This document shows, piece after piece, positions 10,272-59,823 of a stretch of DNA of 64,000 nt; position 1 is the first letter of the stretch, and each line of letters starts with the position of its first letter. Under the pieces are notes generated by a model, which had not been told where the DNA came from, did no database searches, and worked only from the letters and a program-made list of their open reading frames with translations. The position numbers and the translations under genes are program-made. Where the stretch lies: contig CAVUVW010000026.1 of NCBI GenBank assembly GCA_963745035.1, positions 32,001 to 96,000 on the forward strand, in the 5' to 3' direction. Origin of the DNA: an uncultured delta proteobacterium. GTDB lineage: Bacteria > Desulfobacterota > Binatia > UBA9968.

Positions 10272-10727
10272 GTGGGTCAAGCGCGCTATCTGGCGGCCGT
10301 GTTGTACGCAAGCGTTCTGCTGTTCGCCGTGTTCGTTCACGGCCAAGCCGTCGCTCCGGCGATTACAGTTTATCAGACGCCCACCTGAGGCTGTTGCTCC
10401 GCGTGGGTGGGTCACCTGCGAGCCAGCGGATTTAAGATCGACAAGAAGGATGTGTTCGGCAAGAAGCTTGCCGACATCAAGCACCAACTTGGAGTCCCCG
10501 AGCAGCTGCGCTCCTGTCATACCGCCTTGGTTGGCGGCTATGTGATCGAAGGGCATGTGCCTGCTGATCTGATCTACAAACTGCTAAAGGACAAGCCGCA
10601 GATTGTTGGCTTGGCGGTCCCGGGAATGCCCATCGGCTCGCCGGGCATGGAAGGCGGAAAACCGGAGCCGTATGACGTTTTCGCGTTCGACAAAAGCGGG
10701 CGCGCGACGGTTTACGCAAAGAGATAA
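10272..10727 (+). CDS. DUF411-family exported metal-binding protein with in-frame TGA (probable selenocysteine) at 10386-10388
   Basis: Signal peptide then VYQTPT-TGA-GCCSAWVGHL...SCHTA.VGGYVIEGHVPA...GLAVPGMPIGSPGME; TGA sits at the first Cys of the family PxCGCC motif; start codon approximate. Confidence 0.85.
10389..10427 (+). promoter_or_regulatory. Bacterial SECIS-like hairpin
   Basis: GCTG/CAGC, GCT/AGC, CGC/GCG, GGGTG/CACCT stems with GU bulge and GGU apical loop ~21 nt after the TGA. Confidence 0.65.
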
Positions 10728-10761
10728 GAGAAGAGTCCTCGTGCATTGGAGTGATGGATGT

Positions 10762-11754
10762 ATGAGAAAACTGGTTGCAATGATCGCCGGCGTGGTCCTC
10801 CTGGCTCTGACTGTCCCATCAATTTTTGCCCAGGAAAAGAAAAATCTGCGCATGGTGTTCGTGAGTCTTGCCTGGAACAGCGAAATTCCTTTTCGCGTGG
10901 CGCTGGCGCGCGGTTTTTTCAAGCAGCAGGGGCTGCAGGTCGAACCGATTCTGATCCGCGGCGGGCCGGCCGCGATCGCGGCGTTGGTTTCGGGCGAGGT
11001 CGATTATGCCGCCATCGGCGGAGCCCAGGCGGTCTTTCGCAGCCGCGCCCGCGGTTTGGATTTGTCGATCATCGGCTGCACGTCGAGCACGACCAACTAC
11101 ATTCTTCTCGGCAACAAGCAGACGCGCACGATAGAAGACCTCAAAGGCAAGACCATCGGCATCACCGGCGCCGGAACCTATTCCGAATTCGCCATGAAGG
11201 CCTTTCTCAAGAAATCCAATATCAATCCCGAAAAAGACGTCGTTCTGCGCGCCATCGGCGGCACCGTGCTGCGCGCCGCGGCCATCGAGAAGGGAATCAT
11301 CGCGGCGGCGCCGTTCTCGCCTGAAGACGGAGTGCGGCTGATCAAGGCCGGCTATTCGGTCATCAGCAACCTCAGCGAATCATTGGGCATCCCGCAGAAT
11401 ATTCTCGTCTCCCGGAACGAAGTCTTGGAAAAATATCCCGAGACTACCAAGCGCGTGCTCAAGGCCTACATCCAAGGAATCAATTTGGCGAAGTTCAACA
11501 AGAAGGAGGCGATCAAGGCGGGCTACGAGTCCGGTCTCCAGGGCGAACCGGACATCGTCAGCGCGGCCTGGGACCTGTACGCGCCGGGCCTCACTTCCGA
11601 CCTCTCGATCGCCACCGCCGGCCTGCAGCAGATGCTCGACGAAGATATTCGCGCCGGCCTGCTGGACAAGAACTTCACCCTGGACCGGGTGATCAACGAC
11701 CGCATTCTCAAGATCGCACAGCAGGAGCTGCGAGCCGAGGGACGGATCAAGTAA
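10762..11754 (+). CDS. ABC transporter substrate-binding protein (NitT/TauT/NMT1-like)
   Basis: Signal peptide, ARGFFKQQGL.VE.I, AALVSGEVD, IEDLKGKTIGIT. Confidence 0.9.
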   Translation: MRKLVAMIAGVVLLALTVPSIFAQEKKNLRMVFVSLAWNSEIPFRVALARGFFKQQGLQVEPILIRGGPAAIAALVSGEVDYAAIGGAQAVFRSRARGLDLSIIGCTSSTTNYILLGNKQTRTIEDLKGKTIGITGAGTYSEFAMKAFLKKSNINPEKDVVLRAIGGTVLRAAAIEKGIIAAAPFSPEDGVRLIKAGYSVISNLSESLGIPQNILVSRNEVLEKYPETTKRVLKAYIQGINLAKFNKKEAIKAGYESGLQGEPDIVSAAWDLYAPGLTSDLSIATAGLQQMLDEDIRAGLLDKNFTLDRVINDRILKIAQQELRAEGRIK

Positions 11755-11756
11755 GC

Positions 11757-12185
11757 ATGGGCGAGGAACGCGCTTTCGCGGCGCCGGCCCCGCAAATTGC
11801 GCTACGGCAGGTTGGAGCGGTCCGAGCTGGAGCGCTGGAGTACTGGACTGTTGGCTGGCAAGTGGAGAATACGGGAAAGCAGCCGCTCAAGATCTTGGCG
11901 GCGCGTTTACCGCACGGGCAATTCAAGGCGGAAGAGACGCGCTTTGAGCCGCCGCTCGATCTAGCGCCCCGCGCGCACCAACGATTTCAAACATCGGTGC
12001 GCTGCAATGAGCCGCGCGGACTGGTGACCGAGAACGCGTTCGTCATCTTCCATGTGATTTGGTCCGGCGAATCATGGCGCATTTTCGCGCGCCTGCGCGT
12101 TGAAGTTGATGGCGGCGGCATGCCGAAGGCGGCAACCGAATCTATTACCACGCAGAAAGTCGGGTTCTCGGGAGTAAGCTCGTAG
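11757..12185 (+). CDS. Hypothetical beta-rich protein
   Basis: 142-aa ORF starting 2 nt after the SBP stop, host-like codon usage. Confidence 0.65.
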   Translation: MGEERAFAAPAPQIALRQVGAVRAGALEYWTVGWQVENTGKQPLKILAARLPHGQFKAEETRFEPPLDLAPRAHQRFQTSVRCNEPRGLVTENAFVIFHVIWSGESWRIFARLRVEVDGGGMPKAATESITTQKVGFSGVSS

Positions 12186-12321
12186 TAGAAACATATCGCT
12201 TATTACACGACTTGCTGCACTCACAGCGCCGTTAGCCACGTCATTCCCGCATGCTTTAGCGGGAATCCAGGCGAGCTTTGATGAAATCCAAAGTGAATGT
12301 TCGGTGACATCGGGGATCAAA

Positions 12322-12543
12322 ATGGCTGACAAAGAAAAAGACCTTTACATCCTTCAGCGCATGCGCGGCTGACACAACAATTGAGGCGTCGGCTTCGAAG
12401 AGACCACGGGTATGGTCTCCAATGCGGTGAAGATGAGCGAGAAAGAAGTGATCGCGGCGCTCAAGCGCCTGCGCGCAGAGCACAGCGACGATCCGGAATA
12501 CAAGAAGCTGCGGAAAGATCTACCGAAGGAGTGGCCGATTTAA
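12322..12543 (+). CDS. 73-aa protein with two in-frame TGA codons (GUHNNUG), candidate double selenoprotein
   Basis: GGGGA RBS then MADKEKDLYILQRMRG*HNN*GVGFEETTGMVSNAVKMSEKEVIAALKRLRAEHSDDPEYKKLRKDLPKEWPI-TAA; TGA at 12370 and 12382. Confidence 0.75.
12400..12419 (+). promoter_or_regulatory. SECIS-like hairpin for the UxxxU gene
   Basis: GAGACCA-CGGGTA-TGGTCTC perfect 7-bp stem; loop 22 nt after the second TGA and 34 nt after the first. Confidence 0.6.
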
Positions 12544-12681
12544 GCCTTGGTGGTCAGTTGCCGGAGGGACGTAGTCAGTTCGGCTGGGCACAACAGCTTC
12601 CCCCAATTAAGCGCAGAATGTCATTCTGAGGCGGAGCCGAAGAATCTGCTTTTGATAGGGAAGCCGTTTTGCAAACCGCGC

Positions 12682-13440
12682 TTAGGTAGCGGAAAGCTTC
12701 ACTTTCGGCTGCCGCAGATTCAGATCCTTCACGCCGCCCCAGAATTCCCTCTTACCCGTCATCGCCTGAACGTGGCCGTCCCATTCCAACGTGAACGCGG
12801 TCAGGCCGAGCTTCACCGCGGCGCGTACTTTGTCTTGCGTCGCATCATCGATAGCCAGTTGCCGAATCGCGTCGATCTGCCTGCTGCCGTGGCCTTCGTC
12901 CTCCTCGGCATGGAGCTGGTAAGTTTCCGCGGCGCGCGGCGAAAAGCCGTAGTGGCCGGTAAGCTCGCGATAGACTTTTTCGGAAATTTTCCCGGCGCCG
13001 CCGAGCTGGCTCTCGACGAAAGCGAGCATGGCCACGCCTTCGAGGGCTGAGCGGCGCTGGCAGCAGCCGATGATCATTTCGATGGCCGCGAGTGTTCCCG
13101 GCGCCGGCTCGGCGTTGTCGGCATCCTCGCGCGAGATGCCGCCTTCTTCGAGAAACTGGAACATGATGTCCATGTGCGTTCGTTTGCCGCCCAGCTCTTC
13201 CATGAAGTTTTCCAGCACCGTGTCCATGACCGCGTACTCTTTCGCGGAGACGGCATTGACCGCCATATATCCGAAGAAGATCGGGTTGGTGCGCACTCTC
13301 AAGTAATGCTGCACTTCGCCGAGAATAATCTGCTCGCGGCTCCAGCGATGCTTGATGATGCCGTCGAACCAGGGATGCTGCTCCATCGGCACCTCGGCCG
13401 CATAGCCCCAAAGCTCGTCGATAAACTTCTCCGGCTTCAT
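12682..13440 (-). CDS. Iron-containing redox enzyme (TenA/PqqC/CADD-like)
   Basis: HPWF, ENFMEEL...H, YQLHAEEDEGHG ligand pattern. Confidence 0.8.
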   Translation of the reverse strand: MKPEKFIDELWGYAAEVPMEQHPWFDGIIKHRWSREQIILGEVQHYLRVRTNPIFFGYMAVNAVSAKEYAVMDTVLENFMEELGGKRTHMDIMFQFLEEGGISREDADNAEPAPGTLAAIEMIIGCCQRRSALEGVAMLAFVESQLGGAGKISEKVYRELTGHYGFSPRAAETYQLHAEEDEGHGSRQIDAIRQLAIDDATQDKVRAAVKLGLTAFTLEWDGHVQAMTGKREFWGGVKDLNLRQPKVKLSAT

Positions 13441-13636: not shown

Positions 13637-13712
13637 GAGCCGTTAGCTCAGTCGGTAGAGCATCTGCCTTTTAAGCAGAGGGTCGCCGGTTCGAATCCGG
13701 CACGGCTCACCA
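13637..13712 (+). tRNA. tRNA-Lys(TTT)
   Basis: Acceptor GAGCCGT/ACGGCTC, anticodon arm TCTGC-CTTTTAA-GCAGA, GGTTCGAATCC, CCA end. Confidence 0.97.
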
Positions 13713-13716
13713 GCAC

Positions 13717-13794
13717 GTCCCCGTCGTCTAGCTCGGCCCAGGACACCGGCCTTTCACGCCGATAACACGGGTTCAAATCCCGTCGGGGACGCCA
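13717..13794 (+). tRNA. tRNA-Glu(TTC), integration target
   Basis: Acceptor GTCCCCG/CGGGGAC, loop CTTTCAC, GGTTCAAATCC, CCA end. Confidence 0.96.
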
Positions 13795-13821: not shown

Positions 13822-14988
13822 TCACTCTCGGTTTTTTCTTGGGAGCAGTGTCGCGGAGAAACTTTGCAAAGCCGCTTTCAGGTCCGCCTTGGTGAGATTC
13901 TGATATTTTTTGTGATGACGCTACGCTTGAATGACCCGCAGCTAACATCGCGGCAGCGGTCGGCATGCCAGCGGTTGCCCAGCGAGAAATGCGGCAATGG
14001 CGCAGATCGTGGAAAATGAAGTCTTTGATTTTTGCTTCCCTGCACGCTTTGCGGAAGTGATATTCAAACTTCAACTTGTCCATCGGCTGACCGTCCATCG
14101 TTAGAACCGAGATCGCCGACATTCGGGAGCTCTGCGGCGCTCTGCCTGCAACTCCGCAATCAGCGCTTTCAGTTCGGGCGTGAAGACCGGGACTGCTTGC
14201 GGCGTCCCGGTTTTTCCGCGGCCGTTTTGTAGTTCAATGATTCCCTCGCGCAAATCGATTTCGCTCCAGGTCAGACGGAACAAATCCGAGCGGGACAACG
14301 CGGTTTCCCATGCGAGACAATGGCGTCTTCGAGCCACGTCGGGCATTTTTCCAGCAAGGTCGCGAAACTCTTTGTCGGTGAGCATCCGGTTCCGGTCGCT
14401 CTCTTTGTGCATCTCGAACTTCGTCACCTTGTGGACGAATCCCTTTGTCAGGGCGAAGCGCAGAAACTTTCGCAGCGTTCCGACTTCTTTGTTGATGGTC
14501 GTTTGTGAAACCACTTTCTCGGACTCTTCGCCGTGCTTGATGATTTTTTGCTTTGTTCGCTTTTCCCGATAGCCGATAACATCATCGTCACAGATTTGCG
14601 CGATTAGCTTTGAGCCGAAAAGCTTTTCCAGCGGCTTTAGGTGCCACGTCGAAACTGATTTCATTGACTCCGGGCATTGCGCAACGAACTTCGAGAACGT
14701 CATCCCCCTGGCGGTGCGCTTTTGCTTTATCTCATCGAAATCGACTTCATGGGAATTTTTCTTGTCAATGTCGATAGACCTTCTGAATAGGCTGCTTCTC
14801 ATTCTTCCCGAGCGCGAACTTCCGGCTGAACGTGTTGCCAGTCCGTGAATTGGCCGTAATAGCGCGTTCTCGGCTTTCCTGACGCCACGTAGCTGCGTCG
14901 AAACAAACGCGGGACGATATTCTCGTCCCCGTCGAAACGAATCCGTTCCGCCTTCTCCTTCATCGCTTTGCCCCTTTCCGTTGAGCAC
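13822..14988 (-). CDS. Tyrosine integrase of element 1 (several frameshifts; ends approximate)
   Basis: ETALSRSDLFRLTWSEIDL, FIFHDLRHCRISRW, AAGHSS; catalytic Tyr (HKKYQNL) lies in a shifted frame. Confidence 0.85.
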
Positions 14989-58540: not shown

Positions 58541-59823
58541 TATACCACCGGTGCTTGATCGCTCTGGGTAGTGCAGGAATTTTTCGTGGCGGAGGCGAGT
58601 TAAGCACAATCGAGAACTTCGGCGAGGATGAGAGCCAAAGTGGAGTGCGGCGGTCGGATTCACACCGTGCTCTCTCACATGGAGATAAAATGATACGTTT
58701 CACGGCGGTAAGCGTGATTCTTCTTTTCACCCCGTGCATCGGTTGCAGCGCGCAGGTCGTGGAGCGCCCGAAGCAACTGGAGGCAAGCCGACCCAAGCAG
58801 GAAGAAGATCGGAAGTCTTCCTCAACGCCTACATTCACGTATCGCCCAGGTGCTGGTCTGATAATCGAGGGGCGCTAAGGAGCCCTGATCGAGCGTTCTG
58901 CTGTAGTTTATCAACTCAGCATGATCGTTGGGCCAGAGTAATTCTCGGATCGCAGCGCCACGGTCTGTGCTCCCCGGCTTTTTCGAGATGGACTCCCGGC
59001 GTGTCGCCTGGTTTCACTTGTGGCGCGTACATTCGGGTCCGGTTTGGCTAATGGTTTAACCCGTTCTTCGATTCACTACAGAGCGGGAATAGAGAAATTT
59101 GAATTTCGGCTTGCCCTCGTAGCGATAAACGGCAGCAGGCGAGCGGTTCTCGTTGAACTCTTTCCTCATTGCCCCTTGCACCTCCATGTTTGAGGAGCGC
59201 TACGGACTCAGTAAATCTCGTAGCGGAGGTGATAATGAAAAATTTCTCTCTGTAGCCGTTCTCCTCGTGACTGCTCCACAAGGAAAGAAGTTGACGGGCC
59301 TCGAATACGGGGAGTGCGGCTTTAGTCTGACTGTGGCGCTCCAACTCGGTACCGGGTTAACTGATGAAGAAAATCTATTTCACGGGGTTAAAGAACTAAT
59401 CTGAAAAATCATCTTGATCCCCACGCGACAACTATGTCAGAAGTTTTTTCCTGTCACGCAGTTTCTTCTCGGCCACGATTTCCAAAGCCGACAAGATTAC
59501 ACCCCAGGCATCAAGCGGCTGCCTTTCATTGCCCTGGTACAGTTGTTGCCTATTTACCGAGTCGACGTTGATGCTACGAACTGACCACCCCAGATGGTCA
59601 CCATGGGTGTCAGGGAGCAAATGGTGAAACCGCCAACGGTCGCGATCGCTTTTTTTGCCTCCCCGCAGCCTGCTGACTCTTTCTCGGTAATCAGTCCGTA
59701 ATCTGCACAACAAGCGACAACATTGGCAAAACTCGGCCGACTCGGTTCGCTGGAGCGATTGAAGGACCGAAACGGCAGAGAGAACATTTGGTTATCGGAG
59801 CGGTGATCGTGAGGCAAAACTCA

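Follow-up and report, generated by a model that had tools for sequence, protein, structure and literature searches.

When a short reading frame is interrupted twice by TGA, do these codons end translation, or are they read as selenocysteine (Sec)? The question is raised by positions 12322 to 12543 of a 64,000-nucleotide (nt) stretch of contig CAVUVW010000026.1 (GenBank assembly GCA_963745035.1), from an uncultured delta proteobacterium assigned to the Binatia. We call the whole of this stretch the window; coordinates given without a contig are positions within it, on the + strand unless stated otherwise. An earlier note on this DNA had proposed an unannotated tiny selenoprotein with a UxxxU motif at this place, and that proposal is supported by conserved TGA codons, by homologues with cysteine (Cys) at the same positions, by Sec machinery in the genome, and by a constraint on the RNA that is found in the TGA form only. 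From these comparisons we consider it highly probable that this is a bacterial selenoprotein gene with two Sec residues, predicted at codons 17 and 21.

A reading frame missed by gene calling

The predicted coding sequence (CDS) runs from an ATG at 12322-12324 to a TAA at 12541-12543 and would encode a protein of 73 amino acids (aa). A Shine-Dalgarno-like GGGGA (12312-12316), presumably the ribosome-binding site, lies 5 nt ahead of the ATG; the first in-frame TGA (Sec17) occupies 12370-12372, and the second (Sec21), at 12382-12384, is followed by 52 codons before the TAA. Inspection of the sequence found start codon, ribosome-binding site, TGA codons, downstream codons, and stop just as the earlier note had described them. 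With TGA written as U, the product reads MADKEKDLYILQRMRG-U-HNN-U-GVGFEETTGMVSNAVKMSEKEVIAALKRLRAEHSDDPEYKKLRKDLPKEWPI, and the part after the second U begins GVGFEETTG. A search with the translated open reading frame (ORF) found a single copy in the genome of the window.

ORF finders overlook this gene because of its two in-frame UGA codons. The listing made with genetic code table 11 holds only a 43-aa tail ORF (12412-12543) starting at Met31, so that the gene is indeed missed by ORF calling, as had been claimed, and the same fragment dominates databases: of the 125 matches that an exhaustive profile search returned from 1.84 billion representative proteins, most are 43-aa fragments from Met31. 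These 43-aa database entries are miscalled copies of this gene. Bacterial selenoproteins are systematically missed by annotation, and here a gene carried by some four fifths of the genomes sampled from an order of soil bacteria is known to databases only as a 43-aa fragment.

A soil RNA library contains one 223-nt contig that corresponds to 12342-12564 and runs through both TGA codons; it differs at a single position, 12510, and synonymously. Because RNA libraries can contain DNA, this contig is only a weak hint of transcription; three of the four soil RNA runs gave no contig over the ORF, an absence that proves nothing.

Conservation of both TGA codons and homologues with a cysteine pair

Relatives within the order of the source genome were searched with a profile built from a 16-row alignment, from which the loci of two genomes (G005 and G035) were left out; the counts over the 123 genomes of the order include these two as well as G485 and G488, and the sequence tallies include three loci from G005 and G035 (L027, L050, and L091); none of our claims depends solely on these four genomes. 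The profile matched 100 of the 123 genomes, in three families and 22 of 27 genera, with identity to the window ORF falling to 45 to 50% in the family farthest from it. Wherever a match covers both positions, both are TGA, and the only rows lacking the pair are two partial matches, one in G020 (residues 22 to 73) and a second fragment in G478. An even sample of 400 other genomes of the phylum yielded only two marginal matches (E about 0.007), to parts of unrelated huge ORFs. In a second phylum, that of a relative labelled Chloroflexota, the gene was found in 9 of 301 sampled genomes, with two TGA codons in eight of them and a Cys/Cys pair in one. A scan of named genome records gave 184 relatives, of which the best 80 were kept; among the titles of these best 80 of 184, "Candidatus Binatia bacterium," "uncultured delta proteobacterium," and "Deltaproteobacteria bacterium" prevail, a minority name Chloroflexota or Limnocylindria, and a few others belong to short contigs.

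The orthologues behave as a protein-coding gene across the whole frame. An ATG or GTG with a motif of GGAG or GGAGG type is conserved 14 to 16 codons ahead of the first TGA, the codons between vary mostly at the third position, and the frame from the first TGA to the stop is gap-free in all extracted orthologue sequences. The FEET motif was present in 100 distinct nucleotide sequences, of which 98 have TGA/TGA, one has TGT/TGT, and one has TGC/TGA. The TGT/TGT sequence (locus L140) encodes a protein, P0002, whose database name is only "hypothetical protein," and the TGC/TGA sequence is locus L164, on a contig titled Nocardioidaceae. All 103 distinct sequences of the Sec type carry both TGA codons.

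Cysteine takes the place of the predicted Sec residues in a wider set of proteins. Aligned full-length homologues (21, of about 60 to 133 aa) have Cys at both positions, as CxxxC, without exception; a metagenome scan with this Cys alignment gave 120 further matches, with CxxxC in all of the best 80 of these 120; and both Cys residues are invariant in 33 further homologues. The columns that are invariant in Sec and Cys forms alike are the two Sec/Cys positions, Phe25, Thr28, Met31, Arg64, Pro68, and Pro72. It was to be asked of the claimed selenoprotein whether homologues carry Trp, Arg, or Gly at the TGA sites and whether the segment upstream is conserved at all. The residues at these sites are TGA-encoded or Cys, and Trp, Arg, or Gly occurred at neither site in any homologue compared. 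The segment ahead of the TGA codons is conserved as protein, with variation of the wobble type, and can be aligned to the helix at the N terminus of the Cys homologues.

By this alignment, the predicted protein represents, in Sec form, a family of uncharacterised small CxxxC proteins (about 71 aa, from soil and peat metagenomes; MGNCYxACHxDFExTVxMV...LRxRLPxEFP), with which it shares homology over the full length and the invariant positions. Both forms also adjoin a gene of the TenA/PqqC/haem-oxygenase-like kind. The CxxxC family differs in having Cys for Sec, in lacking the RNA constraint described below, and in its gene order, with the enzyme gene on the same strand and carrying a zf-C2H2_9 domain, followed by a Ta0938 gene.

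An alternative would be that the TGA codons are true stops, that the product is the 43-aa ORF from Met31 (12412-12543), and that the sequence upstream is a leader peptide with a regulatory RNA structure. Gene callers have predicted this 43-aa product many times, it is what table 11 lists, and hairpins in 5' leaders can be regulatory. Residues 22 to 30 (GxGFEETTG), however, lie outside any ORF in that case, and yet they can be matched one by one to residues of the full-length Cys homologues; the first 16 codons correspond by homology to helix 1 of those proteins, both TGA codons align with invariant Cys residues, the frame between the first TGA and the stop is free of gaps in every extracted sequence, and the structure model discussed below needs residues 5 to 35 for helices 1 and 2. 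We regard true stops as very improbable and two predicted Sec residues as the better account of these alignments.

RNA structure after the UGA codons

The selenocysteine insertion sequence (SECIS) of bacteria has, in its consensus, 16 to 37 nt between UGA and loop and a G among the first loop bases. The minimum free energy (MFE) fold of the window sequence contains two adjacent hairpins at this place. Hairpin 1 (12381-12398; stem U-UGAGGC/GCUUCG-A, loop GUCG), which is also part of the RNAalifold consensus and has a constrained stem and a variable loop, had been overlooked; its 5' arm contains the second TGA, which lies at the base of the stem. Hairpin 2 (12400-12419; stem GAGACCA/UGGUCUC, loop CGGGUA) is the 7-bp hairpin that the earlier note had reported, and its loop starts, as reported, 22 nt past the second TGA and 34 nt past the first. 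It is the best candidate for a SECIS bound by SelB.

What gives these hairpins weight is the behaviour of synonymous sites. Across the 103 distinct sequences of the Sec type, synonymous entropy is about zero at codons +5, +7, +8, +10, +11, +12, and +15 after the first TGA. The frozen codons are GGC at +5 (85 of 85) and at +7 (95 of 95), TTC (about 98%), GAG and ACC (each 103 of 103), ACG or GCG (third base G in 103 of 103), and GTC (102 of 102). Flanking codons of the same genes have 1 to 2.2 bits of synonymous entropy, and the sites that vary within the region (+6 CTN, +9 GAR, +13 GGN, and +16 TCN) lie within one or other loop, in the gap separating the stems, or just past the second stem. 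In the TGA form, the constraint spans about 40 nt past the second TGA. The control is the same residues in 68 distinct genes of the Cys type, in which Thr and Val each have 1.84 bits and Phe has 0.89 bits.

The folds follow the same division. RNAalifold predicts both hairpins for the Sec type (-13.19), whereas it predicts no structure for the Cys type (0.0), and over the 45-nt region MFE averages -18.3 kcal/mol for the Sec type versus -11.2 kcal/mol for the Cys type. The six core pairs of hairpin 1 are intact in 96 to 103 of the 103 sequences, and the seven pairs of hairpin 2 are intact in 102 to 103. The loop of hairpin 2 has the form CGGGNA, and the G at its second position, although four-fold degenerate, is invariant (103 of 103); the loop of hairpin 1 occurs in 13 variants among the 103 sequences, 69 of which have CUCG, without GU.

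A formate-dehydrogenase-like (fdh-like) gene of the source genome (locus L175, contig C14, 603556-606399) has one in-frame TGA, and so does a molybdopterin-enzyme match on contig C8. The hairpin of the fdh-like gene (GGUCGCC-GGUCU-GGCGGCC) has a 7-bp stem and starts 12 nt after its TGA; it has the classical SECIS shape and is close to hairpin 2. In Escherichia coli fdhF, the spacing from UGA to SECIS is 11 nt. Like these classical elements, hairpin 2 is rich in GC, has a stem of about 7 bp, carries G residues in an apical loop of 5 to 6 nt, and lies inside the CDS a little way 3' of UGA. Unlike them, the present element has two adjacent constrained hairpins and two UGA codons, with the second UGA in the first stem.

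Decoding machinery and genetic code

If the two UGA codons are to be read as Sec, the source genome should hold the means to do so, and selA (592 bits), selB (347 bits), selD (385 bits), and tRNA-Sec (76.7 bits) were all found there, over curated cut-offs. This settles in the affirmative whether the machinery that a selenoprotein would need is present. The selA, selB, and selD genes are clustered on contig C17 (315264-319742), and tRNA-Sec is on the same contig at 371273-371363, about 50 kb away. The selD gene is itself a selenoprotein gene, with one in-frame TGA and a GUAAK motif. Within the order, selA exceeded the cut-off in 110 of 123 genomes, and comparing presence of the machinery with presence of the gene is therefore uninformative there. 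Five carriers outside the order were checked: the three with two TGA codons, of the second phylum, have selA and tRNA-Sec, and in the Cys/Cys carrier neither selA nor tRNA-Sec was found.

In the mechanism that we propose, UGA codons 17 and 21 would be read as Sec by the SelA/SelB/SelD/tRNA-Sec system of the genome, and RNA structure in the approximately 40 nt past the second UGA would direct the decoding. Reading through UGA by other means, such as a change of code or near-cognate or suppressor decoding as Trp, Cys, or Gly, would also keep the frame open, which it is whatever residue TGA encodes. This explanation is hard to credit. Among 100 distinct copies of this gene, the stop codon is TGA in 38, TAG in 39, and TAA in 22; TGA thus ends the very gene in which it would have to be reassigned, and it is not reassigned genome-wide. 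Selenium-free decoding would, moreover, leave the full Sec machinery of the genome, the lack of any homologue with Trp, Gly, or Arg at the two sites, and the RNA constraint found after the UGA codons in the TGA form only without a part to play.

Several observations nonetheless count against our prediction that the two UGA codons encode Sec. No match was found in 23 of the 123 genomes of the order, though most of these have selA, and since relatedness makes the genomes non-independent, the counts suggest more independent observations than there are. The sole Cys/Sec variant (L164, in genome G524) lies on a 2.9-kb contig of a 2.7-Mb assembly without detected selA or tRNA-Sec; the contig is probably mis-binned, and the absence of these genes may be due to mis-binning or incompleteness. 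The fold of the single sequence is ordinary (z = -1.01, with 29 of 200 shuffled sequences folding at least as well), and so the hairpin alone proves nothing; the significance of the hairpins comes only from comparison with relatives. In that comparison, the structure is kept, and in the TGA form only, but all stem changes are one-sided (G-U to A-U, G-C to G-U, or A-U to G-U) and none is a two-sided compensatory change, because there is almost no variation in the stems. The U of the "GU" in the loop of hairpin 2 is variable (U in 75 sequences, C in 23, A in 4, and G in 1). Hairpin 2 starts 15 nt after the second UGA and 27 nt after the first, versus 12 nt in the fdh-like gene. Finally, the RNA evidence amounts to a single contig from a single run.

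Which hairpin serves which UGA codon

Two UGA codons 12 nt apart raise a mechanistic question for the bacterial SECIS, which depends on its position. The earlier note had suggested that both might be decoded from one SECIS, and it is plausible that one SECIS might serve both. In the arrangement that we put forward, hairpin 2 would be the SelB-binding SECIS for both UGA codons, and hairpin 1, with the second UGA inside it and its loop free to vary, would be an auxiliary structured spacer. Hairpin 2 is taken as the SelB binder because its loop has an invariant synonymous G; a recognition loop should be conserved, a structural hairpin need not have a conserved one, and SelB binding is therefore assigned to hairpin 2 and not to hairpin 1. 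Judged from this loop constraint, the role of hairpin 2 as common SECIS is a possibility that we hold at slightly less than even.

How a single hairpin might serve two successive recoding events 12 nt apart is a further matter. Because the second UGA is part of hairpin 1, hairpin 1 must be unfolded while that codon is decoded. Hairpin 1 could then act as a "collapsible spacer" that equalises the SECIS spacing. With the first UGA in the A site, hairpin 1 would be folded and would leave 9 + 2 = 11 unpaired nt between this UGA and hairpin 2; four codons on, the ribosome would have melted hairpin 1, and hairpin 2 would then lie 15 nt from the second UGA. We rate this model as rather unlikely. If true, it would be a new bacterial way of inserting adjacent selenocysteines.

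A tandem pair of elements is about as probable as the collapsible spacer, and we likewise hold it to be possible but doubtful. In this alternative, hairpin 1 would serve the first UGA and then be melted by the ribosome, after which hairpin 2 would serve the second. Both stems are under synonymous-site constraint, and the spacings (hairpin 1 starts 9 nt after the first UGA, and hairpin 2 starts 15 nt after the second) bracket the 12 nt of the fdh-like gene; the loop of hairpin 1 in the window, GUCG, even contains GU. That loop is not conserved among relatives, however, given its 13 variants and the prevalence of the GU-less CUCG, which is unlike a loop recognised by a protein. Hairpin 1 is also retained in L164, whose first position is Cys, and its loop lies 15 nt after the first UGA, just outside the range of 16 to 37 nt.

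Predicted fold and family status

AlphaFold2 modelling of a natural Cys form with 21 homologues gave four helices (residues 5 to 21, 25 to 35, 40 to 54, and 58 to 66) with a predicted local distance difference test score (pLDDT) of 94.6. In this model, positions 17 and 21 lie in the last turns of helix 1, at its C-terminal end, one turn apart (i, i+4) and just ahead of the invariant F-E-E-T. Redox selenoproteins of the thioredoxin-like alpha/beta fold are the commonest kind and carry UxxC or CxxU at the N terminus of a helix; the model is not thioredoxin-like, being all-helical with UxxxU at a helix C terminus. If true, a helix-borne diselenol with i, i+4 spacing would add a novel type of active site to the selenoproteins.

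The earlier note had recognised no family for this protein, and the databases agree. NCBIfam 20.0, including its selenoprotein models, returned no family at E ≤ 10 for the Sec form read with Cys; in Pfam-A the best match of the same sequence was PF22451, at 14 bits versus a cut-off of 27; and ten Cys homologues matched no Pfam or NCBIfam family over the cut-off. Foldseek against the Protein Data Bank (PDB) gave no match to the small protein at E ≤ 0.001 (best E = 1.1). With VIA-align, the best match was a de novo designed helical protein (Z 7.5), and helix-turn-helix (HTH) domains scored Z 5 to 6.4, all below the level that the tool regards as meaningful for helical domains, and the look-alikes in the Atlas were again HTH domains, at template modelling (TM) scores of 0.55 to 0.65, with no usable match.

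Among selenoproteins with neighbouring Sec residues, eukaryotic selenoprotein L has a UxxU diselenide, a thioredoxin-like fold, and a SECIS within its 3' untranslated region. The predicted protein resembles it in having a Sec pair near enough for a diselenide or for chelation, and differs in its bacterial origin, its motif, and its fold.

The text of a 2026 review (PMC13188914) counts 119 prokaryotic selenoprotein families and subfamilies, of which only a small subset has two or three Sec residues. As far as its text and Table 1 go, these include UxxU families (the metal-binding protein NF041115, the FmdB-family regulatory protein, and the Prx-like oxidoreductase) and one UxxxxU family (TsoB, NF045694). 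With the UxxU proteins as given there, our candidate shares a close UGA pair, Cys homologues, and a presumed redox or metal role; it differs in its UxxxU spacing, in a predicted four-helix domain that is neither thioredoxin-like nor a zinc ribbon, and in its lack of any NCBIfam match at the threshold above. TsoB, described in the review as resembling a rhodanese/DsbD fusion, also has two Sec residues more than two residues apart; it is a large, multidomain protein of another family and another spacing, with no sequence match to ours. The motif UxxxU does not occur in the text of the review, and full-text searches found no paper pairing a selenoprotein with Binatia, or selenocysteine with UxxxU, although supplements could list more candidates. 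We class the gene as representing a new family of bacterial SECIS-dependent selenoproteins, in the sense that neither NCBIfam 20.0 nor the text of the review catalogues it. What is unusual in it is that Sec occurs twice and not once, with i, i+4 spacing along a helix, in a predicted small helical domain that is not thioredoxin-like, and that a double hairpin comes after the UGA codons with the second UGA inside the first stem.

Gene neighbourhood and possible function

Gene context was compared among 83 distinct loci of the Sec type and 78 of the Cys type, with the denominators below being the loci with enough flank. Directly upstream of the small gene, on the same strand, lies a gene for a 142-aa protein of no known family (11757-12185), which occupies this place in 78 of 78 Sec-type loci and is a co-inherited partner. 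Across the order, the 142-aa gene occurs in 100 of the 123 genomes; both genes are present in 98 genomes and both are missing from 21, while two genomes have only the one and two only the other, with at least two of these four cases at contig ends. The small gene and the 142-aa gene thus behave as one module, among genomes that are related and not independent. AlphaFold2 predicts an eight-stranded, all-beta sandwich for the 142-aa protein (pLDDT 92), which has no match in Pfam or NCBIfam. Its Foldseek matches are generic beta-sandwiches only (archaeal pilin, Asf1, ApaG, and TRAP, at TM scores of 0.28 to 0.48), and therefore we draw no function from them.

Downstream and convergent with the module (12682-13440, - strand) is a gene for a 252-aa iron enzyme of the haem-oxygenase-like/TenA-PqqC superfamily (PF14518, E = 1.1e-16; PF03070, E = 2.8e-8). 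A convergent gene of this superfamily (Haem_oxygenas_2/TENA-THI4-PQQC), encoding 252 to 254 aa, is found downstream in 69 of 75 Sec-type loci; the protein also has weak matches to CADD and BesC, below their cut-offs. In Cys-type loci, the next gene is on the same strand in 59 of 60 cases, after about 20 nt or with an overlap, and encodes a 298-aa TenA/PqqC-like protein with an N-terminal zf-C2H2_9 domain; a gene for a Cys-rich protein of the Ta0938 family then follows in 51 of 53. Only 1 of 65 Cys-type loci has the 142-aa gene. We know of no described function for this three-gene set of the Cys type (metagenome loci L191 to L270). The TenA-like protein of this set conserves columns of Glu and His, as would suit a metal site, and judged from the alignment these residues may form a di-iron site.

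Because both forms adjoin a haem-oxygenase-like iron enzyme, and because the Sec/Cys pair comprises the only invariant reactive residues, we tentatively suggest from this context that the small protein is a diselenol/dithiol redox or metal-handling partner of the enzyme, together with the beta-sandwich protein; we would not put this at even odds. That the linkage to such enzymes is conserved for Sec and Cys forms alike suggests that the superfamily has a small redox or metal partner which had gone unrecognised. Weighing against this suggestion, it rests on gene neighbourhood and predicted fold, and the structure searches gave no significant match from which a function could be read. A complex prediction for the Cys-type small protein with the downstream TenA/PqqC-like enzyme returned no answer (score 0.00) and speaks neither for nor against binding.

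The small protein might instead be an HTH-like DNA-binding redox or metal sensor that regulates its neighbours and is no partner of the enzyme. Its structural look-alikes include GerE/LuxR domains, sigma region 4, and the N-terminal domains of DtxR/MntR, at the TM and Z values given above, and a weak Pfam match to a NirDL-like HTH (E = 0.038) points the same way. None of these matches, however, reaches the level at which the tools themselves regard a match between helical domains as meaningful, and the close or overlapping placement of the enzyme gene after the Cys-type gene suggests co-translated partners rather than a regulator. A sensor of this kind seems to us unlikely.

Other features of the window

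Upstream of the module, at 10603-11754, is a gene for an NMT1/THI5-like substrate-binding protein of the SsuA family, a gene shared by 30 of 64 Sec-type loci. The small gene has a short hairpin-forming element on either side, at 12242-12267 (CATTCCCGC...GCGGGAATC) and at 12622-12646 (CATTCTGAG...GAAGAATC), each occurring once in the window. In the four soil RNA runs, many unrelated contigs match only pieces of about 35 nt here (12239-12275 and 12615-12652), with differing loose ends, and the elements resemble mini-repeats that are dispersed and widespread. The one downstream may be a terminator between the convergent genes; a scan of 12100-12750 for promoters and terminators returned none.

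At the gathering threshold, Rfam matched only two tRNAs and one riboswitch in the window, all away from the small gene. The tRNAs are a tandem tRNA-Lys(UUU) and tRNA-Glu(UUC) at 13637-13794. Past them, an ORF on the - strand (14101-14988) has a weak phage-integrase match (PF00589, E = 2.7e-4) below the cut-off, and the tRNA pair with this integrase-like ORF could be an integration hotspot. The riboswitch is a c-di-GMP-II-GAG aptamer at 59560-59644 on the + strand, which scored 50.1 bits, over its gathering score.

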